Notes: generated by a model from the letters alone, not told the origin. 64,000 nt of DNA from Elsinoe ampelina (GCA_010093995.1 ML992511.1:1144172-1208171), one strand, 5' to 3'; positions 35,770 through 61,230 are shown, numbered from the stretch's first letter. Numbers and translations are program-made.

Positions 35770-36979
35770 TCATGGCATCTCAGCAGCTTTCTCCAACCCG
35801 TCCGCCTCGACCACCTGGTGGATATCCCTCGTCATTGTGATTCCACCTACGCCTGACGAAGAACCTACCAGGCTCTCCTCGTCGCTAGCTCCGTCGTTGA
35901 CGACATGATGGGTTCCGACGGTGATGCCCTGCTTGTGCTTGGCCGCAGACATGGCGCTCATCTCGTTAACATTGCCGTTGACAGTGCCGTTGTGTGTCCC
36001 GCGATTAGTGGCGCCAGCAGTGACGGCTTGGGTGCCGCGACCGTAGCTGCCCGTGGCGGAGCGAATGCCGTAGAAGACCCTGAGGAAGAGAGGGCGGAGA
36101 GGAGGGAGGGACGAGAGAATGATGACAAGCCAAAGTTCGAGTGTGCCCCAGAGCATGAAGTGGCTGAAGTCATACGTAAGATCATCGCTATGGGCGATAT
36201 AAGGCAGCATCTTCATGCGAAGGATGACGCCGATGGTCGGAATCACACCGACGGCCATGAGGGAGCAGACGCCGAGCTTGATACGGAAAGAGGTCTGGAG
36301 GTTCCAGACGATGCTGATTGGCCATAGAGCAAGCGAGATGTCAGTAAGGGCGGCGAGGGCTGGAACAAAGAGTTAGCGCTTGACATGGAAGTTGACAAGA
36401 GATCCACAAACCGCCTTGGAAGTAAGACCAGTCGCCTGCGAGCTTGAGGCGTGGGCAGGAACCATCAAGGTAAGGAAACCAGAGCTTAGAGAGCGGTTCG
36501 CATTGGAAAAGAGACAGGAAGAATTGCACTGTGGCAGAAATTCCGATGAGGGCCCCCATGATGTAGAGGGCAATGGATCGCTTCTTGGCCGTTTTGCCTT
36601 GAATTTGCAGCAGAAGGGCGATGATGCTGTACTTGGCGAAGATTGCAGCCGGCAGGGAAGTGTACACAGAGATCCAGACCCATCTCAGCGCTTGGAAGAT
36701 CTGAGGGAAGGTGAGGTTGGCAACATGATTGCCCAAACCTTGAAGTAAAGCTATTATCATGGTAGTGGCGCTCGCCAGACCGAAGGCGAAGCCTATAGCG
36801 GCCATGATAAAGTCCATACGCCATTTCCCTGCAGTCTTGGAGGCCGAGTAAGCTCTCAAGATCATCAAGAAAGTGGCGATGGAGGCCAGGGTGATAATCA
36901 GTGACATCAACATCGGGCCAGCTCCTCCGTAGGGATTGGGTGGTGCGAGTGTCGCTGTAGAAGTGGTCGAGGACGACAT
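35770..36979 (-). CDS. PTH11-like (fungal rhodopsin-domain) integral membrane protein
   Basis: KWRMDF, GLGNH, AKYSIIALLLQI, QCEPLSKLW, intron, then WGTLELWLVIILSSLPPLRPLF. Confidence 0.85.
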
Positions 36980-37929
36980 GATGAAGAGGCCTGATAGAGG
37001 AAAGGTGAAAGAGAGAAGTTGGGTGAAGACCTAATGGACCAGAAATTACAAAACTAGGGCTTGGGGCCAGCTAAATAGACTGGTCACGAACGGAGAAGCA
37101 AGAAATGGCAAATCAACGTTACGATAGAAGCAATGAAGTGTCACTTCCACCACTGCATGAATGGCCGGAAGGAGATAGGATAGAGCATCCTTTCAATATG
37201 GTCGTATAGGCGGGTGGTCGTGTTGTAGTAACGTTTGAACGGCTATTCGTTGCACGGACAGAGCGCTGTTTGAAACAGTCCTGAAAGGTGGGGTACGCCG
37301 CATCCTTCAAAGCTAAGACAGAGTGGTGAATATGTGCCTGTGAGACACAAATTGAAGCCGAGAAGAGGTACCTGAGCCGACGGCGCCAAACAGATTCTAG
37401 CGCGTTCGGCGGCGACGCCTTCAACGTCGTAACGACCGCTTCGGCCGAGCCGTGAGGGTCGTCTCGACAATTGCGGATAAATACCAAAGTGGACGTGGCC
37501 GACGTTGAAAATATTGCTGTTCGATCAGAGAGACGTGTTTTAGTCTCGAGTTTCGAGACCAGCAAGGCGGCGTGGCGGGTGGAAGGGTCCCCTATCCAGA
37601 ATTTTAAAAGTGTCTCAGCGACAGGAACTACCAGAACTCTCTGACCGTCAGTCGTTCATCGTCTTGATGAGCAGTTACAGCCAGAATGCTGGTAGTGACG
37701 GCATACTACGATACAGTATCCGGTGCAGCGTCGAGGCTCTTCGTCGTTATCATGTGGTCTTAGAACTCGCATAGCCATTCCTTTGACGATCACTGAGCCC
37801 TATCTATGCTGACTCTAGTTGAGGCGACACGGCTTCTGACACAGTTTCAAGCCCTGAGGTATGCTTTCATCTTGGAAAATCTTGTGAGTATCCGTGTGTA
37901 AGGTTTCAGCGCGCAAGAACCAAAAATAC

Positions 37930-39300: not shown

Positions 39301-39588
39301 CTATCTGGTCAAGCCACAATCGACCTTTTCGTCACAAGCGATGCAAGTAAGGATATAATCCTGCACTTTATACTGAAAGCAGCCATCGAACTTGTCTTGG
39401 CCGAGCTTGTCGAAGACGCAGATGCCCTGGTAGTCGTAGTTGCTGAACCACTTGCCCTTGGCGACATAGCAACACTTCTCAGCCGAGTCCACACGTGTCA
39501 CGGGTCCACCGACGACACATGCTTCACCAGCCACTAGGGTCGCGAAGATAGATGAAAGGATGATGCTGAACGTAATTGAAAGCTGCAT
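39301..39588 (-). CDS. Small secreted cysteine-rich protein (95 aa, 8 Cys)
   Basis: MQLSITFSIILSSIFATLVAG signal-like peptide. Mature part has the pattern C..CC..C..C..CxxC..C. Single exon. Confidence 0.75.
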   Translation of the reverse strand: MQLSITFSIILSSIFATLVAGEACVVGGPVTRVDSAEKCCYVAKGKWFSNYDYQGICVFDKLGQDKFDGCFQYKVQDYILTCIACDEKVDCGLTR

Positions 39589-41120
39589 CTTGAGTGATAG
39601 TCTGGTCGTCGGGTATGCTGTGATCTGGATTAGCTCGGCCAAAGATCGAGATTGGGCTAGTTCACATCTCTGACAGTGGCAATGGCTCCCTCGATGCAGA
39701 AGACCTTGTCCGTGCGATTGATGGTTCTTGGTCTAGGAATTTTGCTTGCTGGAATGGACTTCTCTGGAGATACTTATGCGATTTTCCAACATGCTCAGAA
39801 CGATATCGCTTGCCACCGTAGAAAAGTCTAGATAACTACATGCCCTCCTGTAGTCCCCTCCATTCGCTGTCAAAGACATCTCGCCGGCCGCCACGACCGT
39901 CCCCGCTTCTTGGGATTGCTGAAAGGGAATGACTAGAATTCTTCCGCCTTGGATCGGGTCATGCAGACAATGGTAGCTTCTACAGACCGCCACGACCATT
40001 GATTGACCGGCTATGCATGTACCTGCAGAGTTCAGGCCCGTTAATGCAGGGAAAGCAGCGTGGTAGGAACAGAGGAGGGGAACAGGAACAGGGCTAGATC
40101 TGCATCGGGCAAGTCGGCGTGCTTCCTTCGCTTAGCCAGGCCATCCGGGCAACGGACCCGATTGTGACTTCATCTATTATGAAAACTCAGCTTCGCGCTT
40201 TCATTTCCAATCATGCGACGTTCTTTATCTTCACCCATACCAAGATGCAGGTATAGAATTTACTCAAGTCACAAGGTCAGCGCCATGGAATATGCAGGGG
40301 TTATGGCTTCTTCTTGGAAACGCCCTCCAGTTGGACCCTGCTGGTAAGTTCTATTGTGCTTCGAATTGGCTGAATACGGACGATACTCAGCCGAGGAGAT
40401 CGTGCAAGATCAGATGATTCTGGCTATACAGGTAAACCCCACAAGGTACACCAACCACAGCGATCGACCAAAAGTCTGGGGATTTGTCGATCTCCACGGC
40501 TACCAATCTGGACTTTTCTGGGCAACCCGGTAGCTTGATACCGTCGTCCTGGCACACTGCAGAAGGGCGATAGTGTGTGACAGACTTCATCCATCGCGGT
40601 TGAAGCGCCGAGTCTGCAATCTACCCGCATGGTATTGCCCTCGTGGCCAGATCAATGCATGAACCCTCGGTACAAACTTTCAGTAAGAGGTACAATTCTT
40701 CCGCTTCTCAATCTATCCGTATCGGAGCTCTGCATTAGACCGCTTCTCTACCACTGTTGAGTCTAATATGACCGAGGCATGGGCCTCTTGCGAGCGCCAC
40801 CAGCACATCTATCTCGCCTTCAGCCAGCGACGAGAGGGGTATACGGCTATACACGGACGCAAGAGACTCTTGCTTCGCACCATCAGGGATACGCTTCGAG
40901 CGAAACGAGACCGGTAGCTGCGGGACCGACTGGGATGAAGTCAACGCTGGTAGCGATGAGATGTCCAAGGATCCGGTCGGAGGCCATCGTACGGTCGGTC
41001 AGGGCGACAAGGGAAGGTATATAAAGGGCCTGATGTCCTGCTGGTGGCAAAGATCGACAGAGATCACCGACCAGAACACTTGTCTTCAATCTACCACGTC
41101 GATCTAGACCGCTGATCATC

Positions 41121-42520: not shown

Positions 42521-44441
42521 ATGGGTCAAAACGTTGAGGAAGCCAATGCTGTCACCTCTGGCATTGCAAAAAATACGAATGGACTGACGTACGGAGCTAG
42601 ACATGTCAATGGCAGCAAGCATGATAGTGTGCGAACATCGACTGTAGAGCTGCTGGACCCAGAAGTCCACACAGCCAACCTAGGATCCTCCTACCCCAAG
42701 TCGAAGTTGAAGCTGGAAGATCGCTTCATTGACGATGCTCGGCCTCTACGAATCACAGTAATAGGTGCAGGTCTTGCTGGCATCACTGCTGGCATACTGT
42801 TGCCGATCAAAGTGCCCAACATCCAGCTCACGATCTTGGAGAAGAACGAGGACGTGGTATGTCGTACATGATTCAAGCATAACGATACGTACTGACCCAC
42901 AGCAGAGCGGCACATGGCTCGAGAACATCTATCCTGGTGTCAGATGCGACATAACTGCTCATGTCTACCAGTCGACTTTTGATCCTCGCACCCAATGGTC
43001 TGAGAAGTTCGCACAGGGACAAGAGATTCGGGAATACTGGCAGGGACTAGCTCGGAAATACAATGTATACAAGTTGGTCAAGCTCAGTCGAAAGGTCATT
43101 GGGCTGAATTGGGACAAGTCGGCGTCTGTGTGGAAAGTCAAGGTTCAGGACACGAAAACCGGTCAGGTCGACGAGGAGGAGGCCGACTTTGTGCTGCCAG
43201 CTTTAGGTCGATTCAATGCGTGGAAGCTACCACACTACCCTGGCATAGAGGACTTTAAGGGATTGCTCCGCCACACCTCCAATTGGGACAAATCATTCGA
43301 TCCCAAGGATAAGAATGTGGCAGTCATTGGAAATGGTGCCAGTGGTATTCAAGTCGTACCAAATCTTCAAAGAGTCTCGAAGCGGGTGGATCACTACGCC
43401 CGATCACGAACGTGGATAGCCACGACATGGGCCGGAGATGCTCGCACATTTGAGGCTCAACCGTACACACCTGAGCAGCTGAAAGAATTCGAGGACCCGG
43501 CAAAGTACTTGAAATTCAGGAAAGAGCTGGAAGCCCAGTATTGGCGAGGCTCGCCTGCATTGCTCGCTGGCAGCGTAGCGAACAGAGCAAAGCGCGAGGA
43601 ATACATCAATGTACTCAAGCAGCGAACGACGAAGAAGCCTGAGCTGGTGAACAACCTGATACCAGACTTTAGTCCAAACTGCCGACGTCTAACACCGGGA
43701 CCTGGCTATCTTGAAGCTCTCGCCGAAGACAACGTCGAGCTCATCCAGACAGCGATCAAAAGAATCACGCCCACTGGCATCGAGACTGAAGATGGCAAGC
43801 ACAGAGAGGTAGATGCTATTCTCTGCGCAACTGGTGCGAATGTAGATATGGTCCCACCTTTTCCCATCACAGCAAATGGCTTGGATCTGAGAGAGGCATG
43901 GAGACCTGGTGGAAAGTACGGCTGGCCACACAGCTATCTCGGTCTCGCTGTACCTGAGTTTCCGAATCTCCTACTTGTTCATGGCCCTCACGGTACTGGT
44001 CCCAGTGGTACCGTGCCTCACGCAGTCGAAGTACAGCTCACGTACTACGCCAAAGTCCTCCGCAAAGTCAGCACTCAAGGCATCAAGACAATTACTCCAT
44101 CGAAGAAGGCTACAGACGACTTCGTTGAATATGCGGACGCCTTCTTTCCCAAGACTGTCTTCGCAGACAAGTGCAGCAGTTGGTACAATGGAGGCAAAGC
44201 TGGTGCCCGTATTCATGGGATCTGGCCTGGTAGTGCAGCTCATGTCACGATTGTACGAAGAGAGCCGAGATGGGAGGATTGGGAATATGAACATATCACA
44301 AACACTGGCAACCGCTTTGCCTACTTTGGCAATGGTTTCACGAGGCAAGAGCAGGATGAGAACTATGATATTACAGGATATCTCAAGCTACCCGGGCAAG
44401 ATCTAAGGGACTTGCACGAGAGGTGGTGGGATTTGCCATGA
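42521..44441 (+). CDS. Class B flavin monooxygenase (BVMO-like, StcW/MoxY-type)
   Basis: First Rossmann VIGAGLAG, GTWLENIYPGVRCD, BVMO fingerprint FKGLLRHTSNW (FxGxxxHxxxW), second Rossmann VIGNGASGIQ, CRRLTPG, CATG, CSSWY. One intron near 42857-42906. Confidence 0.92.
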
Positions 44442-45221
44442 GTCAGAGCCTGCTAGACACGCCCGCTCAAGATGAGAAGACCTTTGCAATGCACAGCAGC
44501 TCGAGTATCATTGCTCGAATAGCCTGCGGGCCAAACTCCGATGTCAATGCGTCCAGGGGTCCCTTCCATGCACGTATCAAGCTTTTCCATACACTTCCAA
44601 CCGCATGGCAATTCTCACGTGGCCGACGAAAGCACATGCATACGGATCTCACCGGTCGACGAATTATTCCCAGGCCAATTGTTGTCCGATCTCGGATGTT
44701 CCGATTACCCCCAAAATGCGTGGAAAACCTGCCCTAGTATCCCGCATTGATGCGCAACTATGGCGTGCTCCCCAGCAAATGGAAGTCTCCACTCCGACCT
44801 CCACTACTGCAACGCAAGCTTTGAAGACTGAGAGGTCCGATGAAACATTTCTGCTTATCGTCCTGGGAAATACGTGAGGGGCAGAGAATTTCTGTGCTGT
44901 TGCCATGCCGCCATTGATGATGCGATCGGACTGAAGACTGGATGTGGCCAAGGGGAGATGGTCGGGAACTGAGGCAGGGACTTGACTACGATTCAACGTG
45001 AGATGCTAGAGAGCGTGAGCAGGGTATATGAATGTGGCATGATTGTCGAATGGGTAAGTACACACTTGTGGTCACTTCGGTGGTCGATTGGAAGTTCTTT
45101 CATTGTCACCGTTTCTCTATCTTCCGGCCTCGACGCATACACCACTCCACAGTCCTAATACTACCACAACATTCAATCACACCAAGGTCCATCTGCTACG
45201 TTGCCGTCCCTGTCGCCCGTC

Positions 45222-46756
45222 ATGCCGGAATCATACATCATCGACGACATCCGAGGACCTCCTCCGAAGGATCAGAGACACCCGGTCAAATGGTACAGAA
45301 GCACACTCTTCAATGCAACCATTCTGGGTATCTGTAACTTCTCTGCGCCAGGGATATGGGGAGCGTGAGTTGTACCTTCGCATAAAAGCTGTGGTAGAAC
45401 CTGACAGGGCACAGCATGAACAGCTTGGGAGCCGGTGGCGCTCAAAAGCCTTACCTGGTCAACACCGCCAACGCCCTGACTTTTTGTCTCATGGTGGTCT
45501 CTTGCTACTTTAGTAGTGCAATCGTACACTATATTGGCATCAAGAACGCTCTTATCGTCGGCACATTGGGATATGGTACGCCATTAGCGTGGACGTATCA
45601 TGGATTACACTAATATTCCCTAGCACCATACGCCGCCGGCCTCTACACCAACAACCGCTTCGGCACAGAATGGTCCGTCCTCCTCGGCGCCGCCTTATGC
45701 GGCCTATCAGCAGGCATCTTCTGGATGGCCGAAGCCGCCATAGCCATCGCCTACCCAGAACCCTACAACAGAGGCAAAGTCCTCGGCTACTGGCTCACCT
45801 ACCGGCTCTTCGGCCAGATCCTCGGCGGCGCCATCAACCTAGGCCTCAACGCCGACCGCAACGAAGCCGGGAAAGTATCCTACACCGTCTACCTCATCTT
45901 CATCGCGCTGCAATGTCTCGGTCCCTTCGTCGCTCTCTTCCTCAACAAGCCCGAACAAGTCCAACGCACCGACGGCCGCAAAGTCGAGTTGTCCATCCTT
46001 AATAACCCGTGGTTCGAGATCCGTCAGACCACCAAGCTGTTCTTCACAAAGCGATTCCTCCTCGTGCTCCTCTTCATCGGACAGGCGGTCTACTCCGAAG
46101 CCGTCTTCTTCACCTACCTCTCGCTGTGGTTCTCGGTACGTGCCCGCGCTCTCGGCTCGTTCCTCTCCGGCATCATCGCCGTGACATGCGGCAACATCCT
46201 CGGGAACTGGCTCGACCGGACCAAAGTGCCCCTCAAGACTCGCTCGAGGTACGCTTTCGGCATCATCGTCGTGCTGCAGGGCGCCTGGTGGATCTGGGCT
46301 ACCGTGCTGGTGACCAAGTTCCGTCAGACCCAGCCGACGTATGATTGGGCTTCGGCTGGGTTCGGGCATGCTTTTGCGCCGTATATCTTCCTCTGCGCTG
46401 GGTTTCAGATGAATTACCTCTTCTTGTACTTTATCATTTCGAATTTGGCGACGGATTCGGCCGAGGTGATCCGGTATGCGGCCTTGTTGAGGGGGACGGA
46501 GTCGGCGTGGCAGGCGGTCAGTTATGGGTTGAACTCGATTGTTATTATTGCTGAGGTGGGTGGGGTGTACATCAATTTTGGGCTGTGGGCGGTTAGCTTG
46601 TACCCTGCTTGGTTGGTTTTGAGGACTTTCGGGACTGAGGCGCAGAAGTCAGTCGAGAATGGGAGTGACACGGATCTGGATCAGAAGGTACTTGGGGACG
46701 GGTTTGTGGGTGGTGAGGCGAAGGGGGCCAACAGTGTCAGCTCGGAGGTGAAGTAG
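45222..46756 (+). CDS. UNC-93-like (DUF895) MFS membrane transporter
   Basis: Exon 1 MPESYIIDD...KWYRSTLFNATILGICNFSAPGIWGA, then MNSLGAGG, AGIFWMAEAAIAIAYPEP, RTDG, FSVRARALGSF, LLRGTESAWQAVSYG. Many TM segments. Confidence 0.88.
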
Positions 46757-46963
46757 ATGGAATCCGCAGTGGGTATTATCAGGTTATAGAGGAGGTTCAC
46801 TTGAGATATCGATTTAGTCGGTGGGTGATAGTATTGGTATAGACGAATGTATCAAGTGCTCTGCCACTCTCAGCCTTGGAAACGTCATGCGCAGAAAGAT
46901 TGAGAGTTCTGTCGATCTATCAAGTATATAATCTGATACTCGAGAAGTGGGATTCATTTCGTA

Positions 46964-48223
46964 TCACCGGATGCGCGCGACGAGTCTCCCACCACTGATC
47001 TCGCCTTTCCGCATTCGATCCAAACCATCGTTGACCCCTTCTAAGCCGTCGACTACGCCAAGTATCCGTGGCGGTACGACAAGACTTTCCTTCAGCAGCC
47101 TCTCCAGCCACAAAACTAGCGCCTCTCCGACCTCCGGCACCTCATGAAACAGCTTGACTGGCACGCTGTGATGATGTGCACCAGTGACATGCTTTGGTAA
47201 CCCGGTCAACCCAGTGAGATGCGACCCTCTGATCTCAGATGTCTTATCCGCTGCGTCAGAAGGTGGTGTGCCCGGCGGCGTCGGATCCGTCACTCCATTT
47301 GCTTTGGCATCATGGCTTTGGAGACACTGCGCTAGATATTCAGAGGTTGTTTTGCCAACGACATCAATAGCGAAACGTAAGCTGCCGCCAGTGACTGATC
47401 TGACAATCTCTATCGCCCTTTCGGGATCGTGCGAGTCTACCACAAAGTCCGCCTTGAAGGCAGGATCAGTGGCTAGGGTGTTCGCATGTTTCCGCACATC
47501 GAGGACGATGATAGTCCGTAGTCCGGCAAGGCGGGCTAGTTGATTGATGATGAATGCGCAGGTCGACGAACCGCCCCAGATCGCAAGCCAGTCGCCTTCC
47601 CGCGGTCGATCGTAGGATGAGATACCTTCTACACATTCCTCTCTGACATCCTTTGGTAGCCGCGCTGAGTCGATCCTCCGAACAAGGTTGACAAGATCTG
47701 GGCCACCGCTGATGGGGGAGAAGTCCAAGCCGGTGCACACTCCAAGCGCAAGAGCGCCGGTGACGAATGCGACACCGATTGCTGCACCTTGCTCCGACGG
47801 TACTGATTGAGGAAGTCTGACGAGATTGAAGTGGCTTGAGATTGCATACTCCTGGTAGGTCGCCTTGCGAAGATCTCGGTAGTCTGTTGATATGAGAGCG
47901 ACTCTATCGCCCAGCTTTAATCGTTTGTTCGTTGATGCAGGGACAGTGACATGTCCGACAAGTTCTCTTCCGGGTATGTAAGGTAGTACCGGTATGCCAA
48001 AGCCATAATCACTGCATGCTGAGTCAGGACTCTGAACGAGAGGAGATGTATTTGCCACTCACGGTGCCTTCCAGTCTATCGGGTTCAGACCAATCACTTC
48101 CGTCTTTACAAGGACTTCATGTTCATGCTGGATAGCAGGAATCGATTGATCATGCTCTAGAACATACTTTTGACGAATGGCTGGTAGAGAGAGTACTCTC
48201 TGCGTTTGTGGTATAGAGGCCAT
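46964..48223 (-). CDS. MDR-superfamily (GroES-like) NAD(P)H oxidoreductase, enoyl-reductase/ToxD-like
   Basis: VIGLNPIDWKAP|DYGFG, PYIPGRELVG, YQEY, IWGGSSTCA, KGEISGGRLV. No obvious catalytic Zn cysteine set. One intron near 48010-48063. Confidence 0.88.
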
Positions 48224-48787
48224 GCCTGTAGTTAATGTGATGGTCAAAACATCAGAAATGCAGACACCAAGTCCAAAGGTCGATAGATTAGCGACCAATC
48301 CGAACGCGAGAAAACATCATCGTACATGAAAGATACTTCCTGAGCAGTACTCCTCACTTTCGAGCCCGCGGGCATCTCCTGTCCAGCGATACCGGCCTCG
48401 TTGGGCAGGACTCACGGATATTGGTTCACAAGAAACATTCGCAATTTGGGGCTGGATGCACGTTGACGCAAGCGTCCCACTCGTCGGGAATGGGAGATGT
48501 GATGGCGACGGATGCAGTGGTGATGGAAACGTAAGAGAGGAGATTCGGCCTGTGAGAGATGTCGTTGATGTCCCGAAGTGGTCTAGCGTCATGGCGTGAC
48601 AGCAGCTCGAATTTCACCATCCCTCATCAAACCTGGAATGTTATTCTTGCGATACAACGGCGAGATGTAAATTACCAGATCACCAGTCCTGCCTTGGAGA
48701 CAGTGAGGGGTGCCATGTTTCCTGCTTTGAACGTCTCTGCAGCTTGAGCCCAAACCCAGTTGAGCATATCGATCACTACCAGCAGTC

Positions 48788-50605
48788 ATGGCTACTGAGG
48801 ATGGCAGAAACGGCGTCAAGCCAAAGAAGAGCATCATTGTGAATGCATTTGTTGAAATGTGTAAGTGGCGGTCCAGCCTATCTATCAAGCCCACGTCCTC
48901 GCCACCTTATTCCACGTGCCTTAGTTTGCACTGCAGCACTAATCCATGGCAGGCAGTGGCCATCAGGCCCCAGGACTCTGGCGGCATCCTGAAGATGAGT
49001 CCTGGAAATTCAATGATGTCGATCATTGGGTGAAGCTAGCCCAGCTGTTGGAGGAAGCTTCCTTCCACGGCATCTTCATTGCAGATGTTCTTGGTAAGTC
49101 TGATCATCCCACGCTCCCACGCTTTTAAACACCCCTTGCCGAAATCCACATTCTCGTGTATAGCCCTGGGAGCCCACGTGACTGCCCTGCATTCCGGTCG
49201 TCTACTACATGCACTTGTCGGAACTAGAAGTCGCTTGGAATGACACAACAGTGAACTGACATCTATTGCAGGTGGCTATGATGTCTACAATGGCAACTTG
49301 GATGCTGCCAAGCGTAGCGGCGCCCAATTCCCAGTCAATGAGCCGCTGAGTGTCATACCCGCAATGGCAGCCGTGACTAAGAGCATCGGCTTCGGTTGTA
49401 CTGTATCAACCTCATACGAGTATCCTTACCACCTTGCTCGTCGTCTCTCTACAATCGATCATCTTACCAAAGGTCGTCTGGGATGGAACATTGTCACTTC
49501 GTACCTTGATAGCGCATCCCGGAACATGGTTGGCAAGGAACAATTGCCGCATGACGAACGCTATGCCAAAGCCGAGGAGTACGTCCAGGTTGTCTACAAG
49601 CTCTTGGAGTCCAGCTGGAGAGATGATGCTGTCAAACTTGATCGTCAAAAGGGCGTCTATACTCAGCCAGACCTGGTGCGAGAGATCAACCACAAGGGCA
49701 AGTTCTTTGATGTGCCAGGGCCTCATCTGTGTCAACCTAGTCGCCAACGGACGCCCCTTATCCTTCAAGCCGGTACCTCAAAGGCGGGTAAGGACTTTGC
49801 CGCCCGCCATGCTGAGGCTGTTTTCGTGTCGGCCTTCGGGCCGCAAGTAGTTGCTGGTAGCATCAAAGACATTCGTCAACTGACTGCCGCGAATGGGCGA
49901 GATCCGAAAAGCATCAAAGTGCTTGCTCTTGTGACTGTCATTGTTGACGAGACAGAAGAGCTTGCTCAGCAAAAGCTCAAGGACTATCGGCAGTACGCTT
50001 CGCTTGAAGGGGCGCTTGCCTTGATGGGCGGCTGGATAGGAGTAGATTTTGGCAAATACGGGCCTGATGAGGAACTGAGAGAAGTGGAGAGCAACGCTGT
50101 TAGGTCAGTGGGCTGACCGGCGAGCGTATGAGATATATTTCTGACAATTCCAGGTCGACAGCTCAAGCCTATGCTCGGTTTTCCCCCGGCGTCGGCAAGT
50201 GGACGAAGGATACGATCGCTGAGCACGTCAGTATCGGTGGCAATGGTCCAGTCCTCGTCGGTACTGCGAGTCAGGTCGCAGACGCGCTCGAAGTGTGGCT
50301 CGACGAAGCCGACGTCGACGGCTTCAACTTTGTAAGTTCTGCGTAAGCAAACTCGCCGTGTTTGACACTGATCACGATAGGCCTACACTGTGTTCCCAGA
50401 CTCTTTCAAGGACATCATCAAGTTCTTGCTACCAGAGCTTCGTGCTAGAGGTCTCTTTTGGGACGGCTACACGGTTCCTGGTGGGACATATCGAGAGAAC
50501 TTCTATCAGAAGCCTGGTCAGACTGGGCCGCCGGAAGAGCACTTTGCGGCCAAGTACAGGTGGCGAGCTGGAGTGGCGGATGAAGATGCGCCTGTGCCAG
50601 AGTAA
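48788..50605 (+). CDS. Luciferase-like FMNH2-dependent monooxygenase, DmoA/NtaA/SnaA/DszA family (copy 1)
   Basis: NAFVEMC|SGHQAPGLWRHP, FIADVLG, AQFPVNEP, PYHLARRLSTIDHLTKGRLGWNIVTSY, PSRQRTPLILQAGTS, FAARHAE, DVDGFN, LLPELRARGLFW. Four introns. Confidence 0.93.
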
Positions 50606-50723
50606 GCTTAGCAGTCGATCAAAACTGAAGCCTCTACACCGAAAATTGTTCACACTTGAAATACCAGGAATGTTTGAAAGCACTTTTGACTCATGTCTGC
50701 TATTTATCTAGCACTGTCTCGCA

Positions 50724-52453
50724 CTACTCCGCCTTCCAGTGATAAGCCGCAGCAGGATGATCAGCCGGCGGCCTCGCCACCCCCTTCTTACCATACAAGT
50801 TCTCCCTGTACGTCCCGCCTGGCACAGCATAGTCCTCCCAGAATAGACCTCTCTGCCTCAATACTGGTAGTAAATGATCGATGACCTCTTCAAAAGTCCG
50901 AGGAAATACCGCGTATGCAATGTTGAAACCGTCAACATCAGCCTCACTGACCCATCGCTCGAGGTCATCCGCAACCTCTTCTGCTGTACCGATGACAGTG
51001 GCGCCTAGCCCGCCAACCTTGATGTGGTTCGCCACTGCCGCTTTCGTCCACTTTGCCACTTTCGGAGAAGCTTTGGACCATCCCTCTACGGCAGAACGAA
51101 TGGCGTTTGACTCCACGTGGCGCAACTCTTGATCGTCGTCATATTGGGACAGATCAATCCCAGTCCAGCCGCCGAATAACGCAAGCGAACCGTCCTCTGA
51201 ACCATAGTTGAGGTACTCTTGATACTTGGCCTCGGCCTCTTCGTGAGTTTTGCCAATTATGGGGCACAACATGGCCAGAAACTTGATGCTGGTAGGATCT
51301 CGGCCGAATTCAGACTTTGCTTGGGCGCGTATCTCGGCAATGTTCTTGGCTACTACTGCTGGGCTGTGGCCTGCCACAAAGATTACTTCAGCATTGCGGG
51401 CGGCGAAGGCTTTTCCGGCCTTGGAGGTGCCAGCTTGCATGATAACAGGAGTACGTTGAGGCGATGGCTCACAGATGTGAGGGCCGGGCACCTGGTAATA
51501 TTTACCCACGTGGTCAATGGTGCGGACTAAGGAAGGATCGGTGTAGACTCCGGTCTTGCGGTCTAGCTTGACGGCATCATCACGCCACGACGATTGCCTA
51601 TATGCTGTCAGTGTGATGCGATAGAAGCACTCGGAATACCTACCAGAGCTTGTACATGACCTCGGTATATTCCTCGCAAATGGCATAACGCTGGTCGTGC
51701 TCCGGCTGCTGAGTATGTCCGAGGTTCCTGGCAGCAGAGTCAAGGTAGCCAGTCACAATCTATCTAGTCAGCTGCGAATAGTCCAGAGGTTGGTTAGAGT
51801 GACTTACATTCCACCCGACTCGGCCGCCACTCAGGTGGTCCGCGGTACTAAGACGTCGCGCAAGATGGTACGGCTATGGCGAGTCAGAGCTCTTTCCATG
51901 AGTTTCGAAACGTATGCACCTACTTGTTCGTACGTCGTAGCCAAAGTTACAGCGAAGCCAATGCTCTCTGTTGCCGCCGCCATGGCTGGCACGGTCAGGA
52001 GAGGTTCCTGTCACAAACATTAGTCTAGATGCCAACTAGCGGTACATGTAATGTGTTTTACATTGACAGGCCATTGAGCTCCGCTGATGATAGCAGGATC
52101 TGGATTGCGTGGTCCCTTGTACACATCGTATGCTCCCTGATATGTGGTCAACTTTTGGGCTTCATGTCTCAGGCGTAGGACAGCATTACCAGCACATCTG
52201 CTATAAAGACAGAGTGAAACTTTCCCTTCTCGAGTAGCTTAGCCAGTTCAATCCAATGCTTGATCGAATTGAACCCCGATGATCTGTCCTCCGCGTTCCG
52301 CCATCCTCCTGGACTCTGATGGCCACTGCCTGGAATAGGGTCAGAGAGTGTTGAATTAGCAGCACAGGTCGTCTTACATGATTCAACGAATGCACTGATG
52401 ATCAGCTGCTTCTTTGCATGGCCATTGGCACCGTTGGTCTGGGTGTCACTCAT
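50724..52453 (-). CDS. Luciferase-like FMNH2-dependent monooxygenase, DmoA/NtaA/SnaA/DszA family (copy 2)
   Basis: SAFVESC|SGHQSPGGWRN, FIADVL|GAYDVY, AQWPVN|EP, PYHLARRLSTADHLSGGRVGWN, PSPQRTPVIMQAGTS, DVDGFN, LLPVLRQRGLFW. Six introns. Confidence 0.92.
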
Positions 52454-53241
52454 GTTGCTGGTAGTGTTTGTTTGTAGCAACTCTCTCAGAAGCGATCAGA
52501 GCTCGACGTGGGGGGTCGGTCGGGTGCAAAGCTCAAGTCGAGGTCACGCTCAAGGACATCCCTGCTCTAGCCCGAGGTGACCGAGGGGCATATGGAGGAG
52601 CTAGTCCGGCCGGTAAGTGACCAAGCAGAGCGCCACGCCGGCGTGTTGGAATGAACCTTGGGTCTCCAACAGCCCTCATGGGGACTCATCAATCTCTCGA
52701 ACATGATTCGATAGATCGGGAACATGCAAAGGTTCACGTGGATGTCTTGGTACAGTACAGTATGAGGTTTGCTCGCCATCTAAGCAGGCATGGCGTGCTT
52801 CGGGTTGTGGTTCCACTTTTGCCGCTTGCGAGCCAATCACGTGGCTGGCGTCGAGGCTTCACTCCAACCTCACGACTTCGAATACACTTTCTTCCATCAT
52901 CAACGCGGTCCCCTTTGCTGCCAGATATCAACATGCGATATCGGTGGTCATCAAGAAACCATCGAAGCAATGGTCTAGGACGTTTAGTTCGACATTGGCC
53001 GGCGTGATTGCATCATGAGTGGCCACACCTCATGGCTGGCTCAGGGAGCGAGAACCATGTGGAGCAGCAAGAAGTAGGTGAAGGGTCAATGCTATCTTGC
53101 ATTCATAATGTCGGCAGATCTGCGTATCACATTGTAGCTTTCCAATCTGTCGGGATAGGTGCATTCGTCCTTTATTATTCTTTACTCTCTTCTCTGTCCA
53201 AACAAACCCACTTGTTTTGGAGTCACATTCTATCAGACACT

Positions 53242-55528
53242 ATGGCGGGCGGATCGTCAACATCTGGGGTCACCTCGACCGAAACTACCGTCGTGCCGCC
53301 GCTTTCCCAAGCGGTCGGTTACGTAGTGGTTGTAGTTATTGGCTTCGTTATCGCATTGATCATGATATGGATTACCCGACTTCTCAAGAGGACAGTCGGA
53401 GAGGACAATAAGAAATCAGAGATGTTTATTACAGCCAACAGGAGCATTCGAACTGGCTTGACTGCATCTGCCGTCATCTCGAGTTGGCTTTGGAGTACAG
53501 CTATGCTGGGCAGCACACTCGTCGGTTACAACTTCGGTGTGGCCGGACCTTTCTGGTTCGCTGCAGGGTATGGCATCCCACAGATATTATTGAAATATGC
53601 TGACCAGGCTTAGATGCTCACCCATGATTGTCTTCTTCTCGCTACTTGGTATCGCCTGTAAGATGAGGGTTCCCGAGGCACACACACTGCTCGAGATCGT
53701 TCGCATACGGTATGGGACATTTGGACACATTGTTTGGATTATACTTTGTTTGATCAACAATATTATCGCCGTCGCAAACATGCTTCTCGGCGCTTCCGCT
53801 GCCATTTCTGCCCTGTAGGTCAACTCGGACTGTGATGTAGGCTGTAGCTAATGGACCAGGACCGGCATGAATATTACAGCAGCTACCTTCTTACTCCCTA
53901 TAGGTGTCATCCTCTACACATTCGTCGGTGGTATCAAAGCGACCTTCCTCACGGACTACTTTCACACCTTCATCATCCTGATCATTGCTTGCTTTTTCAC
54001 GATCAAGACCTTTGTCACCCCCGAGATTGATTCTATTGGTCATCTCTATGATCTGGTAGTTGCAGCTGGAGAGGTTCACCCTGTTGACGGAAATGGTGGC
54101 GGTGGGTCGTACTTCACTATGGAGAGCCACGGCGTAAAGTCCATCATCTGGTCTGTGGAAATTCTGCTGACTTTTTTTTGGCAGGCATTGATGTTCGCAA
54201 TCATCCACGTGCTGGCTAACTTTGGTCTTGTTATCATGGATACGTCCTTCTTCGTCAAGGCCTTTGCCGCGAAGCCAGATGCTGTGGTCAAGGGCTACGT
54301 CGTCGGCGGAATCGCCTACTTTGCCATTCCTTGGGGCTTGGGTACCCTTATGTCCCTTATCGCTCTTGGTCTAGAAGGACAGCCACTCTTTCCTACTTAT
54401 CCTCGCCGTATGACCGCTACTGAAGTCAGCAACGGGCTGGTACTACCATACTCTGCCATCGCCATTGCTGGCAAGGGTGGTGCTGCTGGTGTTCTGCTGA
54501 TTACCTTCATGGCCGTCACTTCGACCCTGTCTGCCCAGGTCATTGCTGTCAGCTCGATCATCAGCTTCGATATCTATAGAACATATTTCAACAAGGCAGC
54601 AACAGATGCGGACGTCATTCGATGGTCTCACATCGGTGTTGTCTTCTTCGGCTTGTTCTCCGCCGCCTTCTCCACTGCCCTTCACTACGGCAAAGTGGAT
54701 CTTGGCTGGACGCTTTACTTCCTCGGTGAGAATAGATACTACCAGACGGGGTGGATCCGAGTGTCTAACAGCTTACAGGTGTTCTCACATGCCCTGGTAT
54801 CTTCCCTACCACATTCACAATCTTGTGGAAGAAGCAGTCAAAGGCAGCTGCAATCATTTCTCCTCTTCTCGGTTTGGTCACTGGACTCGCAACCTGGCTT
54901 GGTACAGCACATGCGTTTTATGGCGAAATCACGGTCAAGTCCACTGGCGGCACACTGCCATGCATGTACGGTACTGTGGCATCCGCCTTCTCTCCAGCAT
55001 TGTACTCTGTCGTAATCTCTCTCATCAAGCCTGCCAACTTCGATTGGAGAGACTACCGTAAGGAGAAGCTGGCTTTTGACAGTGATGAAGACATCCATCA
55101 ACCCCACTCCAACATCCTCGAGGAGGATGCCAACAGCTACGAAGCCAATAAGAAGAACTTTCGCCATTGGGGTAAGATAGCCGCAGCATGGTCTCTTGCA
55201 ACCTTTCTCGGACATTGGGTGTTATGGGTGAGTCTGCCATTGTCTGTGGATGTCTTGTAGTGGTAGGACTAATTTCATGCAGCCACTGCCCATGTACGCC
55301 GCCAGATACGTTTTCAGCAAATCGTTCTTCACGGCTTGGCTCGTCATAGCCATCATCTGGCTTTGGGGAACTTTGTTTGTTGCTGGCTTCTATCCTATCA
55401 TTGATGGTCGAGAGCAATTGTTGCAGATCTGGAAGGCTTGGAGGGGAAGGCCGGCTGATGTCAAATCAGAGTCGGATGGAAGTGCAGTGGAAGTTAGCAC
55501 AAAGGCAGACGACAAGGCTTTGCAGTAG
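53242..55528 (+). CDS. Sodium:solute symporter family transporter, Dur3-like (urea/polyamine type)
   Basis: PPLSQAVGYVVVV, EMFITANRSIRTGLTASAVISSW, AHTLLEIVRIRYG, YTFVGGIKATFLTDYFHT, FMAVTSTLSAQVIAVSSI, WPLPMY...YVFSKSFF. Several introns. Confidence 0.92.
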
Positions 55529-56054
55529 ACCGCAATAAGTATAGAATTGATAGAGTATACTGTAGACTGATGACATGGACAGCGATTCTGCCATCGTCCG
55601 AACAATGTGGTGAAACAAGTGGGGGCAAAGCCCTGGTAGTATGTGGGAACAGGTGGCGAACCTCGGCACGGCAGAAACGCCCATTATTTTGCTTCTCTGC
55701 AGAAATTGTAGGCAGAAATCCTACAGCGGCCCTAGCCCTCAGAGCCATGCATTCGGATGTCTGTCAAGACCTGGAACCTCGTTACTGTGGTTGAACAAGT
55801 CAGGATGCCCGCAAATTGACTTCCACCAAACGCCGCAACACATGAGGAGTTGTTTCACCTCGCCACTCAACCATCAATACATGCATCAGCCTCAGTTTCG
55901 TCCCTGGCCCATCACCATCCATTCATCTCGACTTCAGGGCTTCAGGGTCAGCAATGCGGACAAAAAAGCTGCATACCCAGAATGAGTATTCTACGTTCCT
56001 ATTCTCTCTTTTCACCGACCCGAGGGACCGGCGCCCCATTTTCGTTCTTTCACC

Positions 56055-57761
56055 ATGCGTTCGTTTTTGATTGCATCACTGGTAGCGACCACCTTCGCTC
56101 TCCCTGCTCCTTTGGATCTACTTCCACGCGATGCTTCTCCCAGCATCATTCCCGACGAGTATGTCATTACCTTGAAAGGGCACACAGATGATGTGGCGAG
56201 CTTCATCAAAGGTCATTCCGCCATCTGCGACAAGAAGCCTGGCAGGACGTACGAGATAGAGAGCTTTAGAGGCTTCTCGATGAATCTGACGCCAGAGGAG
56301 AAGAAGTCCTTGGAGGAGCACCCCTCCGTGGCATCCGTTGAGTCGGACATGCTGATCAAGGCGCATGCCATCACCTCGGTCAGCGCTGGCAACTGGGGGC
56401 TGGCTAAACTTAGTCAGGGCTCCGGATCAGCTTCGAATCAGTACAAATTTGATGGCTCGGCTGGTGAAGGGACATGCTCGTACGTCGTCGACACGGGTGT
56501 CTTTGTCGACCATCCAGATTTTGAGGGCAGAGCGGTCTTTGGTGTCAACTTTGAGCCCACCGACGGGACCGACGAGGATCTTGGTAGACACGGGACACAC
56601 GTAAGTACAAGTATTGTTGGGTCTGTAGCAATACGCTGACACTCATAGTGTGCGGGTACCATTGGCAGCAAAACCTTCGGTGTAGCCAAAAAAACCAAGA
56701 TCATTGCCGTCAAGGCCTGCAACAAGGATATCACTTGCCGTTATCAGGATATCGTCAGTGGCATCACATGGGCGACCCAAGACAGCAAGACTCGTGGCTG
56801 CCCTAGGGGGACCGTCATCAATCTCAGTCTCGGTGGTTGGGGTACCTGGGTTGCCACCCGTGAGGCCGTCAACGCTGCCACTGCCAATGGTATCTTCGTC
56901 TCGGTCGCTGCAGGGAATTCGTACAAGGATGCCAGCGATGTATATCCTGCTTCTGCACCTAATGCTTGCACGGTCGCTGCATCGGACAGCAGTAACAACT
57001 TTGCTAGCTTCAGCAACTACGGGTCCGTGATCGATGTGATTGCTCCAGGTGTGCAGATTACGTCGCTGGGTACAGATGGCGGAACGGTAAGCAAGTCGTG
57101 CATGCTGGGGTAACAAGGCTGATGATTACAGTACATCATGTCCGGAACATCAATGGCTGCCCCGTACATCGCCGGGCTTGGTGCGTACCTGCTCGGTACT
57201 GAGGGGGCAGCAGATCCCGTGGCTTTGTGCCAGAAAATCAAGGACCGATCTGTCAAGGGGGCGATTCGCAACGTGCCCAGTGGTACCAACAACTATCTGG
57301 CTTACAATGGCGCATCTGGTGGCGTGCCTGCCGCTGCCGCTGCTGCTGCTGCTGCTCCTTCTGCCCAGCAGCCTCCAAGCGGAACTGACTCCGGGAGTGG
57401 ATCTACAGGCGACTTGGCTGCCGATAATCCTGTCCGTCAGCCTTTAGATAGCTCGAACGGTGGCTTCTCTGGCACTGCTCCAGATGAATCACCTGGTGGC
57501 TCATCAGGCAATGGTAATGCGTGGGGTTTTCCATTTGGTAGCTGGTCGGCCGGGCTCTTCTCCGGCAGTCCAGACAGTGGCTCCTCTAGCACGTCTGGTG
57601 GCCAGCGAGCGGGTGGTCAGTCGGTCAGTCCCAAACCGGTATCAGAATCTTGGTCTAGTGGTCAGCCGCGTACTTGGTCAAAGACATGGTCGACCGGGGA
57701 CCTGTCTGGCAGTGACTTGAAGGAGTTGTGGGCGAAGATGACAGGCGCTGGGTCGTCGTGA
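56055..57761 (+). CDS. Secreted subtilisin-like serine protease (S8, proteinase K-type) with I9 propeptide and C-terminal low-complexity tail
   Basis: Signal peptide, catalytic triad VVDTG / HGTHCAG / SGTSMAAP, INLSLG, VAAGN, FSNYG. Two introns. Confidence 0.93.
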
Positions 57762-58730
57762 GGAATAGAGACGAGATTTTCGATCCGAGCTGTATTTGAA
57801 TGACATTCCACGTGGGGACACGTGATATTACATATCAAGTGTTTTTCATCTTCTTTGGACGGTCTCATTTAGCGATATCGTCGACTGCTCCCGACTGCTA
57901 TCTCCAGCACCCTGGTCAAGTGAGCCGAGCGAGGACGAGTGGACAAACGCCCATCTTCACGCGCACACCGCTAGTGGTGAAGATGTACAGTAAGAGATGG
58001 CGGTCGCCCAGCGTCTGCCAACAACAAACACTACCACCACTCAATCGACGATAATCTGAAGCGACACCAAAAAGTCTAATCTTACCTGTATTGGCAGCGC
58101 CGTACTTCCTACCTGCAGACGCAAACCCCGAACGTCGAGTCGGATCCTCGCGGATGCCAGGTATACTTATGTAAGAGTCCCTTTGCTGACATACGTCAAT
58201 TTAATGTTTCCCGTCTTTGTGTGATTCATATCTTTCCTTCTTTTCCCCATCACACCTCGCGTTCTTTCCATCATCGCAAGAACCCTGCCCTCCTTTTGAG
58301 CTCCACCGATCATGACCGTCCCAAAAGGCGACGATCAAAAGCGGGCAGGCCGACGTGGCGGCTCTAGCTCCGACTACGCCTCCTTCGTACACGCAGCCAC
58401 GCAGCTTGCCGAACAAATTTGTCGAGCCTTGGCCGTTCAATCGCTCCCATTTAGCCTTGGCGCAATCTCTGTCGGTTCGAGTGTTCGCAACGAAGCAGCC
58501 TGGCAACCTTCTGGATCCAGAGCAAGAGGCCCACTTTGTCCTGTCAGGTCCCTTTTTTGTGGAGGTAGGTTCGAGGGAAAAGCATGGATTCTGCCGGCTA
58601 TTGACAGCTGTGAATCGTGCGGCGTTGTTGCAGGGTCTGCTGGCCTTTCTGCTGTCTTATCTGCTTTGATTTGGTTACGGATTTTTTGTGGCTTTTGTCC
58701 ATACAAGATCTTTACAGTACCAGGTCAGCA

Positions 58731-60456
58731 ATGGGTCGAGAAGATGTTCTTTCCGCTTTTGAGGTTGAGCAGAGGATTGATGCTGGAGAGGTGCTCGTCG
58801 TCTTTGAGGGTCATGTCTTGCGAATGGACAAATGGTTGAGCAGGCATCCTGGTGGTCGACTGGCTGTGCTTCACATGGTGGGGAGGGATGCTACCGACCA
58901 AATTTCAGTGTAACTACCACCACCCCGAGCGACCATCATTGGCGTCTGGCAGAGAAGGAGAGTAGTACCCTTGGACATGTTCTGACCGTCGGTCAGATAC
59001 CATTCTAGGGATGTACAGAACCGCATGAAGGCTTTCCGGATAGGAAAGGTACAAGAGCCTTGGATCAACCTCACGCCGCCAATACAACGAGGACAGGAGA
59101 AGCAGGTTCTCTACGAATCGGACTCGGATGCGTCTACACTGTCCACGTCGTCGATTGAAAAGCAAGAGAAGGAAGTACACAACCGGAGACCTAAGCAGAC
59201 AGCCACAGACTCGTCGGACGACTACGCCGCCGAGGCTGTCAAGCAGGAGATCGCAGATGACCTGGCTGCATACCCGTCGTTGGATCCTGCCACACAGAAA
59301 GCAATCTCGGATCGTTACAAGGCATTGGCGCAGAGGGTCGAAGATGAGGGCTTCTATGACTGCAACTACATGGCGTATGCGAAAGAGTCCGTCCGGTATC
59401 TAGCACTCTTCGCCATCTTCCTGTTTGCCCTTCGGCATGAGTGGTACATCACTTCAGCATGCTTCCTCGGCTTGTTCTGGCAGCAGATCATGTTCACGGC
59501 GCATGATGCTGGTCACCTCGCCATCACCCACAACTTCAAGATCGACACAGTGATTGCCTGTTTTATTGCAGACTTCTGCTGCGGTCTCTCAATGGGCTGG
59601 TGGAAGTCTTCACATGTTGGTCTCTCCCCTCTTGCACCTCGATATCTGCTGATCCAGTTCCAGAACGTGCACCACCTCGTCACCAATCTACCTGTAAGCG
59701 ATGAACCTGAAATGGTTTTATGAATGTCATTGCTGACTATTGTAGGAACACGATCCCGATATCCAGAACGTCCCAGTCTTTGCTACTTCCCCTTCGTTCT
59801 TCCAGTCGGTCCACAGCTCATACTATGATTTCGACTTTGACTGGGATGCGGCCGCTGATTGGGCTGTGCCACACCAAGCCTGGTCATACTATCCAATTAT
59901 GGCCATTGCACGATTCAACCTCTATCTGCTGTCCTGGCTCCACATCTTGTCTCCACGATCTGTATCCTTTGGCTCGCGCCAATGGGTCAAGCCACTGGAG
60001 CTCGTCTTCATGTGCTGTTACTGGTTCCTCTTTGGATACTGCTTGCTTTGGTGCAGCATCCCGACCTGGACCATGAGGGTCATCTTTGTGCTGGTCTCAC
60101 ACATCATCACGATGGTCTTGCACGTTCAGATCACTCTATCGCACTTTGGCATGTCCACTTCCGACCTGGGTCCTGGCGAGTCTTTCGCGCAGCACCAGCT
60201 CAGGACGACTATGGACGTTGACTGCCCGGAATGGCTAGACTTCTTCCACGGAGGCCTGCAGTTCCAGGCAGTCCATCATCTGTTCCCAAGAGTGCCTAGA
60301 CACAATCTGCGCAGACTACAAGTCCTGGTCAAAGAATTCGCCGAGCAGATCAATGTCGAGTACAAAGTTCTGGGCTTCGTGGATGGCAATAAGAAAGTAC
60401 TAGGGAGGCTGTCCGACGTGGCGGATCAGGCGAAGCTGTTATATGCCTGCCGGTAA
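58731..60456 (+). CDS. SLD1: Delta-8 sphingolipid desaturase (cytochrome b5 fusion)
   Basis: HPGG heme motif and His boxes HDAGH, H|NVHH, QAVHHLFP. Also HVQITLSH and RTTMDVDCP. Three introns. Confidence 0.92.
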
Positions 60457-61230
60457 TGGGGTCACGGTATGAGAGGAATGGTCTCCAGCGAAGGCGTCAA
60501 CTGTACAGAAAAGCTTTCTTAGGTCGTGATGGTATTACAGGGATACAGGACAACCATGTCGATATTAGATCTCTTTATTTTCTTGCATGCGCTTCGAACT
60601 ATGGGACCCTTTGCGAACCCACAATCAAATGTCGATATCGCACTGCTGATCGGCTATGCGAATCTTCCATCTCTATACGGGTCTTCCCTATCAAGCTTCT
60701 TGATCAGATAACTTAAATCACCACAGTCTCAAGCACAGCTGCTATCGAAAGCCTCCCCGTCCGCGCGTCGTAGGTCCCAGCTCCGAAAAAACCCCTAACT
60801 TAATCCAAGTGGCAAGACCCAAATTCCCGCACGTGGCCGCGGCGAAATCTCCCAAGCTCCACGGCTCTCAACGGCGAATTAATGCAGGCATTGCAATTTG
60901 CAGGGCCCCTCGTCCTGCCGGCCGTTGATTTTCCTGCGCGATCTGGGCGCCCTACGAGACGAAACGTCGATCAATGCAAGGGGTCCACGACCGTGCCTTG
61001 TTGACGAAAGCTCGGATCTCTTCGTTCCGCACGGATGCGTGGAAGATCTTCTGGAACGACTGTCGATCGTGGCCTGATGGGTCGGGTGATTCCAGGTCCA
61101 CAGTCTCTCGGGGAGGGACGGCGAAGATGGAGCTCTTGATAACGCATGTAATAACTTATCCAAGTTACATACACACAGCACAATCATGCAATGCTGTATA
61201 CTGATTACAACGACCTGCATCTGCCTTGAC

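Follow-up and report, generated by a model that had tools for sequence, protein, structure and literature searches.

A six-gene cluster of flavin monooxygenases, transporters and a zinc-free reductase in Elsinoe ampelina, a candidate sulfur-starvation module

Six genes for monooxygenases, transporters and a reductase

A 64,000-nucleotide stretch of the Elsinoe ampelina genome (GCA_010093995.1 ML992511.1:1144172-1208171; hereafter, the window) carries, within positions 42521-55528, six intact genes whose translations, once GT-AG introns are removed, contain no internal stop. The first encodes a Baeyer-Villiger monooxygenase (BVMO)-like FAD/NADPH monooxygenase of type I (623 aa; 42521..44441, plus strand; exons 42521-42856 and 42906-44441), followed by a DUF895/UNC-93-like transporter of the major facilitator superfamily (MFS; 478 aa; 45222..46756, plus strand; exons 45222-45364, 45415-45575 and 45624-46756) and a zinc-free medium-chain dehydrogenase/reductase (MDR) of the LovC/enoyl-reductase type (402 aa; 46964..48223, minus strand; exons 48223-48063 and 48011-46964). 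The other three products are a luciferase-like monooxygenase (LLM) of the NtaA/DmoA family, dependent on reduced flavin mononucleotide (FMNH2) and here called LLM1 (482 aa; 48788..50605, plus strand; 5 exons), a second monooxygenase of the same family, LLM2 (476 aa; 50724..52453, minus strand; 7 exons), and a paralogue of the Dur3/UreA symporter family with a remodelled substrate pocket (678 aa; 53242..55528, plus strand; 6 exons). The spacers between successive genes measure 780, 207, 564, 118 and 788 bp, and 2 pairs, MDR/LLM1 and LLM2/symporter, are divergent. An initial annotation, made from the sequence alone, had described six neighbouring genes with spacers of about 0.1-0.8 kb and the same 2 divergent pairs; its coordinates were recovered, and Pfam, NCBIfam and PDB searches returned the gene families that it had named.

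The gene models were compared with contigs from 4 public runs of 3 studies, the RNA status of which is guessed or unrecorded. Joints corresponding to 13 of the 19 predicted introns were seen, including all 6 of LLM2 (5 further joints were not displayed), and the run contigs place the BVMO acceptor at 42906, 3 nt from the predicted site, which yields the 623-aa product. The spliced forms indicate that transcripts of these genes exist. At 48693, upstream of the LLM1 start, contigs of 3 of the 4 runs carry 18 extra bases and those of the fourth match the window, which is probably a strain indel. The MDR and LLM1 proteins match E. ampelina KAF2221199 and KAF2221200, respectively, at 100% identity. 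The initial annotation had also noted the lack of polyketide synthase (PKS), nonribosomal peptide synthetase and terpene synthase genes; consistently, Pfam detected no such domain in 16 exons from the 36-60.5 kb interval, the remainder of the window being covered by reading open reading frame (ORF) lists only.

In the BVMO, GxGxxG Rossmann motifs at residues 82 and 255 lie on either side of a fingerprint at residue 230, which we take to be the type I BVMO signature FxGxxxHxxxW[PD]. The best PDB match is PAMO (E 1e-40), with an arginine aligned to the catalytic arginine, presumably R337 of PAMO. These features assign the protein to the type I BVMO class. No fusion of the BVMO with any of the other 5 proteins occurs among its best 150 matches, 1.84 billion representatives having been searched. 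The transporter matches Pfam MFS_1; its DUF895/UNC-93 label is our assumption from the sequence and from synteny with Neurospora crassa NCU05886, and is not a Pfam match.

Both LLMs exceed the cut-off of the NtaA/DmoA/DszA family TIGR03860 (279.7 bits), even as partial exons (LLM1, 360.6 bits; LLM2, 290.1 bits). They share 60% identity and have differing intron sets, which points to old paralogues; their second introns (LLM1, 49094, phase 1; LLM2, 52189, phase 0) are offset by a single base at one and the same codon boundary, which may reflect intron sliding. As the initial annotation had suspected from the N-termini, the closest solved relative is DmoA (PDB 6ak1), which matches LLM1 over its whole length (469 bits, E 2e-139), ahead of LadA (423 bits), DszA (245 bits) and CmoJ/MoxC (213 bits). 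DmoA reportedly produces methanethiol and formaldehyde. A figure legend in PMC13352529 (this and the other papers cited below are drawn on in excerpt) gives the product as DMSO, so that the closest model is itself described in 2 ways.

In a tree restricted to sequences of at least 330 aa, on which all clade assignments rest, LLM1 groups with N. crassa XP_959879, annotated as dibenzothiophene desulfurization enzyme A (69.8% identity), and Trichoderma reesei 108781 (74.1% identity) in one clade with support of 98/95, and is accordingly predicted to be the orthologue of both. LLM2 falls into a clade of its own, apart from LLM1. Among the 7 metagenome members of this clade, 5 are divergent from the same Dur3-like gene, 1 adjoins another Dur3 paralogue and 1 has none. 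A third, distant clade (loci L002, L014 and L061) adjoins an MFS family not present in the window and may, together with that transporter, be the counterpart of NCU05883/05884. For partial metagenome matches, the LLM1 and LLM2 labels are unreliable (for example, L020 versus L021). A scan of prokaryotes returned 24 loci, 21 of them from Rothia, so that no donor was identified; since long branches also join at the root of the tree, we make no claim of transfer. The 3 of these 24 loci that were inspected contain SfnB, SsuD, MetQ-like and SsuABC genes, placing these inspected bacterial relatives in sulfur operons of the sfn/msu/ssu type.

By both profile and fold, the MDR is closest to LovC (model pLDDT 91, TM 0.73, approximately 20% identity) and retains the LovC catalytic lysine (K54). 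The places of the zinc ligands are occupied by Asp-Trp-Lys and Gly-Arg-Glu in 84-85 of 85 homologues and CxxCxxC is absent. A zinc-dependent alcohol dehydrogenase, which we take to need a catalytic Cys and His together with structural zinc cysteines, is thereby ruled out, and the sequence identifies the protein as a zinc-free, LovC-like reductase. LovC-type trans-enoyl reductases and zeta-crystallin quinone reductases, its best sequence and fold matches, are likewise zinc-free. Unlike these, the MDR contains an insertion of approximately 50 residues with an invariant Glu-Cys as well as invariant arginines near the pocket, the family-specific invariant residues being R69, the YRD-R loop and E179-C180; unlike LovC, it has no PKS partner in the scanned window exons or among 134 spare ORFs of 27 related loci.

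The symporter shares family and fold with the urea/H+ symporters UreA of Aspergillus nidulans and AtDUR3, with a markedly different pocket. Compared with the AtDUR3 residues given in PMC11840088, it retains W93, W95, H222, N305, D312 and P342 and carries the changes T98A, Y117F, Q124M (a position mapped on a no-gap assumption), Y315F, W338Y, Y461L and E402Q. Thus, 3 of the 9 urea-pocket residues (W93, W95, T98, Y117, Q124, N305, Y315, W338 and Y461) are kept, and 4 of the 5 essential ones are changed. From the orthologue-specific set of UreA (PMC4077062), 6 residues were compared by way of the AtDUR3 alignment and residue spacing, leaving out S446, and none is kept (Y106, A110, N275, A374, Y388 and Y437 correspond to F, C, H, T, F and L). 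The altered residues are identical in all 5 full syntenic homologues, indicating that the changed pocket has been selected. The protein is therefore predicted to be unlikely to carry urea; as a guess, a pocket with tryptophans and one amide and with fewer hydroxyls would suit a methylated molecule of the size of urea, such as dimethyl sulfoxide (DMSO) or dimethylsulfone. Dur3 paralogues are upregulated under sulfur limitation in Candida albicans (PMC13170222) and repressed by methionine in T. reesei (PMC4536894); these are sulfur-regulated paralogues, with no orthology to the window symporter implied.

Two recurring modules joined in one locus

A metagenome scan with the MDR alignment yielded 75 loci in 51 non-redundant groups, 28 of which were informative, that is, had at least 2.5 kb of sequence on one side of the MDR. 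At least one partner family is present in 23 of the 28 (NtaA/DmoA-type LLM in 20, BVMO in 10, MFS in 9 and Dur3-like in 5), a linkage that is not due to chance and that bears out the expectation of clustered orthologues in the initial annotation. Two arrangements recur, one consisting of BVMO, MFS, MDR and LLM1 (L002, L010 and L029) and the other of the LLM2-Dur3-like pair beside an MDR (L025, L026, L042, L058 and L069, of which L025 and L058 are closely related). The window joins these 2 modules, which are found apart elsewhere. In L002, a Dothideomycete-like contig repeats the layout of N. crassa.

Among 14 named assemblies, the accessions or locus tags of the MDR and LLM1 follow each other directly in 11 (one of them E. 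ampelina), are 3 apart in 2 and are 184 apart in Elsinoe batatas; as the 14 pairs were pre-selected, this figure is not a rate. The cluster is common in Pezizomycotina. A gene for a fungal-specific transcription factor (PF04082) flanks it in 3 loci (L014:18831-20969, L033:3018-4670 and L036:1539-3140) and is not adjacent in the window; it could encode a substrate-specific regulator.

The MDR lies near FMNH2-dependent monooxygenases of 3 families in 23 of the 28 informative groups: 20 have NtaA/DmoA-type enzymes and the rest SfnG-like (L050 and L070) or DszC-like (L050 and L075) ones. In the remaining 5 groups, 3 have less than 400 bp on the usual LLM1 side, 1 has a DUF895-type MFS gene and an amino-acid permease gene, and 1 has a TauD-family gene. 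The loci with SfnG-like and DszC/MsuC-like genes beside the MDR (L050:4158-13291, L070:1-2658 and L075:2033-6089) are fungal-looking contigs, in one of which (L070) a perfect CYS-3 palindrome lies between the MDR and the neighbouring monooxygenase gene; an SfnG-like gene fragment scores 381 bits against a cut-off of 383. Such loci might represent a fungal dimethylsulfone pathway.

NtaA/DmoA-family LLMs need FMNH2 from a reductase, and no flavin reductase family was detected in the window exons scanned or in the 134 spare ORFs of the 27 related loci. That the MDR itself supplies FMNH2 is a tentative proposal, which we regard as rather improbable; that it reduces the carbon co-product of the reaction, for instance, an aldehyde or enal, has about even odds. 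Its position beside 3 families of FMNH2-dependent monooxygenases fits a reductase role and also fits a role on a common aldehyde product. FMN reductases of the SsuE, DszD and nitroreductase types, which we take to have a flavodoxin-like, split-barrel or nitroreductase fold, differ from the modelled MDR fold, so that if FMN is reduced, the MDR lies outside these families. Weighing against this role are a more ordinary source of FMNH2, the N. crassa nitroreductase NCU03696, which CYS-3 binds and which is induced 7-fold (PMC8550094 supplements), the ability of a single reductase to supply many monooxygenases in trans (PMC13352529), and locus L028, where the MDR adjoins a TauD-family gene with no LLM within 10 kb. 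In the open-access literature, as far as the texts consulted extend, no report of a flavin reductase of the MDR type was found.

Probable sulfur control of the cluster

The order and annotation of the four-gene core are those of N. crassa NCU05885-05888, annotated as flavin-binding monooxygenase, DUF895 membrane protein, oxidoreductase and dibenzothiophene desulfurization enzyme A (PMC8550094). On this basis the BVMO corresponds to NCU05885 (mox-5), the MFS transporter to NCU05886 and the MDR to NCU05887; the equation of XP_959879 with NCU05888 rests on common annotation. In N. crassa, the 4 genes are near-silent without sulfur starvation and rise by log2 fold changes of 7.3, 8.4, 10.3 and 8.1 (NCU05885, NCU05886, NCU05887 and NCU05888) upon it; the induction is lost in a cys-3 mutant and all 4 are bound by CYS-3, with one peak common to NCU05887 and NCU05888, as expected of a divergent pair (PMC8550094). 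The induced block extends to NCU05884 (Seo1 MFS) and NCU05883, another LLM that rises from <1 to 141-376 fragments per kilobase per million (PMC8550094). In T. reesei, methionine represses the gene for 108781 2.5-fold (PMC4536894). Thus, the co-expression and sulfur induction that the initial annotation had named beforehand as a check are found in the N. crassa counterparts.

The promoters of relatives carry the same signal. In 65 of them, the top de novo 7-mer was ATGGCGT (33 occurrences versus 6.0 in shuffles), which is the core of the published CYS-3 motif, and the exact published motif was counted 17 times across 49,099 bp of promoter sequence and 0 times in a 51,470-bp control, with the qualification that the control is non-coding DNA of the same loci, not purely promoter, and that related loci are not fully independent. 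The core site is present in the LLM1/MDR spacers of 14 of 15 relatives. The window contains the CYS-3/MetR-like core site ATGGCGTG in the MFS promoter (44760..44767, plus strand), in the divergent MDR/LLM1 promoter (48591..48598, plus strand) and in the divergent LLM2/Dur3-like promoter (52790..52797, plus strand), the last with a near-identical site upstream of the closest LLM2 relative (L032). Membership of the four-gene core in the CYS-3/MetR sulfur-starvation regulon is well supported by analogy with these relatives; for the LLM2/Dur3-like pair, sulfur control is less well supported.

Proposed pathway and alternatives

Collectively, we consider that the cluster is a CYS-3/MetR sulfur-starvation module that takes sulfur from small C-S compounds, with a probability of roughly 70%. 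The choice of organosulfur over C-N scavenging, which the initial annotation had favoured, is upheld by the clustered orthologues, the induction and CYS-3 binding in N. crassa, the methionine repression in T. reesei and the promoter motif. In the pathway that we infer from the protein families, sulfur shortage would cause CYS-3/MetR to switch the cluster on and both transporters would bring in alkyl sulfides, sulfoxides or sulfones of small size. With NADPH and O2, the BVMO would raise the oxidation state of the sulfur, and LLM1 and LLM2, with FMNH2 and O2, would hydroxylate the carbon beside it so that the C-S bond breaks, releasing an aldehyde together with a thiol, sulfenate or sulfinate. 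Unlinked enzymes (SsuD/SfnG-like, TauD-like and cysteine synthase) would carry the sulfur product into cysteine, and the MDR would spend NAD(P)H on either of the 2 tasks considered above. The most likely substrates are small methyl-sulfur compounds (dimethyl sulfide (DMS), DMSO or dimethylsulfone) or methionine- or plant-derived thioethers, and the LLM2/Dur3-like pair is probably devoted to a second substrate.

A narrower version, which we regard as improbable, is a fungal route for sulfur from DMS, DMSO or dimethylsulfone in which the Dur3 paralogue carries DMSO or dimethylsulfone and the MDR is the FMN reductase for two-component monooxygenases. A LovC-like MDR acting in this way would explain its DmoA-like, SfnG-like and DszC-like neighbours alike. 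If this were true, the pocket would have exchanged hydrogen-bonding for hydrophobic residues to match molecules that are urea-shaped, with methyls in place of amines, and both the urea-transporter paralogue and the LovC-like MDR would be parts without a described equivalent.

Several observations weigh against the reading as a sulfur-starvation module. All six genes occur together in none of the 75 loci, and in 7 further named genomes the MDR and the listed LLM match are far apart by locus tag, so that the six need not form one pathway; several of these 7 are Fusarium relatives, in which the MDR may belong with the second module. Orthology to N. crassa is supported by sequence for LLM1 and by order and annotation for the other three, and the expression evidence under sulfur limitation comes from relatives and not from E. 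ampelina. The window promoters give a modest signal, with a single core site apiece in 3 of the 4 (P 0.033), none upstream of the BVMO, and no exact published 11-mer or exact CYS-3 palindrome, and the core site is found in the LLM2/Dur3 spacers of only 2 of 5 relatives. Moreover, the open-access literature yielded neither a substrate or product nor a mutant phenotype for any of the six genes. As an alternative, the locus may be a sulfur island, in which genes of one regulon act on different compounds and are joined only by common promoters, the LLM2/Dur3-like pair being independent and maybe not sulfur-controlled. Besides the weak CYS-3 signal in the spacers of that pair, this is favoured by the shuffling of order and content (LLM2-Dur3-MDR in 5 loci, MFS-BVMO-LLM1-MDR in L010 and L029, MDR-BVMO-LLM3 in L014) and by the association of the MDR with SfnG-like or DszC-like genes in L050, L070 and L075. 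However, the order BVMO-MFS-MDR-LLM1 is kept in Elsinoe, L002 and N. crassa, that is, in 2 fungal classes, and the 4 N. crassa genes are co-induced to a similar degree; we consider the island unlikely, if worth keeping in view.

The other alternatives place the locus outside sulfur metabolism, and were rejected on pocket residues, scores, regulation and missing synthases. Nitrogen scavenging, by NtaA/EmoA-like C-N cleavage of amines or polyamines imported by the Dur3-like transporter, draws on the transport of urea and polyamines by the Dur3 family, on the inclusion of NtaA in TIGR03860 and on GATA-like sites in the spacers, 3 of them in the window LLM2/Dur3 spacer; yet GATA density is approximately at background (125 in the window), the urea-pocket residues are lost, the relatives are CYS-3 targets, and in a separate PDB comparison NtaA (149 bits) and EmoA (99 bits) score far below DmoA (311 bits), making this reading highly improbable. 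Even less can be said for catabolism of long-chain alkanes, in which LadA-like LLMs would hydroxylate the alkane, the MDR oxidise the alcohol and the BVMO handle ketones, as proposed in silico for LadA homologues of Aspergillus flavus (modelling only, with sulfur not mentioned in the excerpted text; PMC9468676). LadA is the second-best PDB match to LLM1, but its pocket residues His311-Tyr312 align to Leu-Met in LLM1 and Leu-Phe in LLM2 (Leu-Tyr in DmoA), with Leu at the position of His311 in all 94 LLM1 homologues; furthermore, the MDR lacks the zinc ligands, and sulfur-specific control would be senseless for carbon catabolism. Scarcely credible, finally, is the tailoring or detoxification of a secondary metabolite or plant defence compound, with the MDR as trans-enoyl reductase for a distant PKS: the fold similarity to LovC and the retained lysine speak for it, whereas the low identity to LovC, the silence of the N. 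crassa genes outside sulfur starvation and the absence of a synthase beside any of the 27 loci with spare ORFs scanned speak against it.

The genes that flank the cluster do not belong to it, as a DUF4360 gene and a subtilase gene are kept beside it in none of 99 loci. The subtilase, directly downstream (55986-57761), combines an I9 propeptide with a long tail rich in Ser and Gly; secreted proteases of N. crassa are induced by sulfur starvation (PMC8550094). Further downstream lie a housekeeping fatty-acid desaturase gene (58300-60456) and ABC-transporter-like fragments interrupted by stops (61090-63100), with a Walker A motif near 61600, apparently a decayed gene. On the other side, a short ORF (39301-39732), rich in cysteine, outside any Pfam family and beginning with what resembles a signal peptide, looks like a gene for one of the small proteins that plant pathogens secrete. 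PTH11/fungal-rhodopsin-like membrane genes lie within approximately 10 kb (26642-27121, 31344-32225 and 35770-37030; one confirmed as PF20684), near what we take to be a FAD monooxygenase gene (28716-30257) and a GH3-like gene (33212-35518). Presumed housekeeping genes include those for an Ssk2-like mitogen-activated protein kinase kinase kinase (748-5012) and a family X DNA polymerase (23339-25698).

Known systems resemble the cluster in part. The N. crassa block shares its annotations, order, divergent MDR/LLM pair and CYS-3-type promoter sites, and differs in having NCU05884 (a Seo1-type MFS, absent from the window) and NCU05883 beyond the BVMO, where the window has LLM2 and the symporter beyond LLM1. 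DmoA/DmoB of Hyphomicrobium sulfonivorans provides the family and a full-length match for LLM1; unlike there, no DmoB-type flavin reductase gene is adjacent, and DmoA itself serves carbon and energy use. In the bacterial sfn, msu, ssu and dsz systems (SfnG, MsuC, SsuD and DszA/C), flavin monooxygenases act under sulfur limitation to oxidise sulfur and break C-S bonds (PMC13352529). The fungal genes differ in having introns, a single-component BVMO instead of DszC/MsuC, MFS and Dur3-type transporters instead of ATP-binding cassette transporters, and the MDR where bacteria have SsuE/MsuE/DszD. The suggestion of the initial annotation that the gene set is uncharacterised stands in part: no description of it as a pathway with a substrate was found in a search confined to open-access papers, so that substrate and chemistry are undescribed there, but its regulation has already been published (PMC8550094, PMC4536894). 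In the excerpted text of Huberman et al. 2021 (PMC8550094), the genes are members of the CYS-3 regulon, are not called a cluster (the word appears twice in the main text, both times for something else), and no substrate is tested. Of the NCU numbers, 5 were looked up in the open-access papers, and 2 papers alone mention any of them. What is new here is the fusion of 2 modules, the remodelled Dur3 pocket and the zinc-free MDR as hub gene.

Soil sulfur is mostly organic, and moulds grow on DMS and DMSO. According to a 2018 review (PMC5857272, in excerpt), fungal FMNH2-dependent monooxygenases were genetically and biochemically uncharacterised and no FMN reductase had been tied to sulfur assimilation; an Aspergillus fumigatus enzyme opening DMS has only been proposed (PMC6794476). 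The novelty is tempered by the published regulation, the bacterial precedent for the chemistry and the wide occurrence of the cluster. Nevertheless, a conserved cluster now names candidate genes for the use of C-S compounds by fungi, with N. crassa as a model host, and if the more specific proposals were true, a new flavin-reductase fold, or a Dur3 paralogue carrying a sulfur compound, would each surprise specialists.

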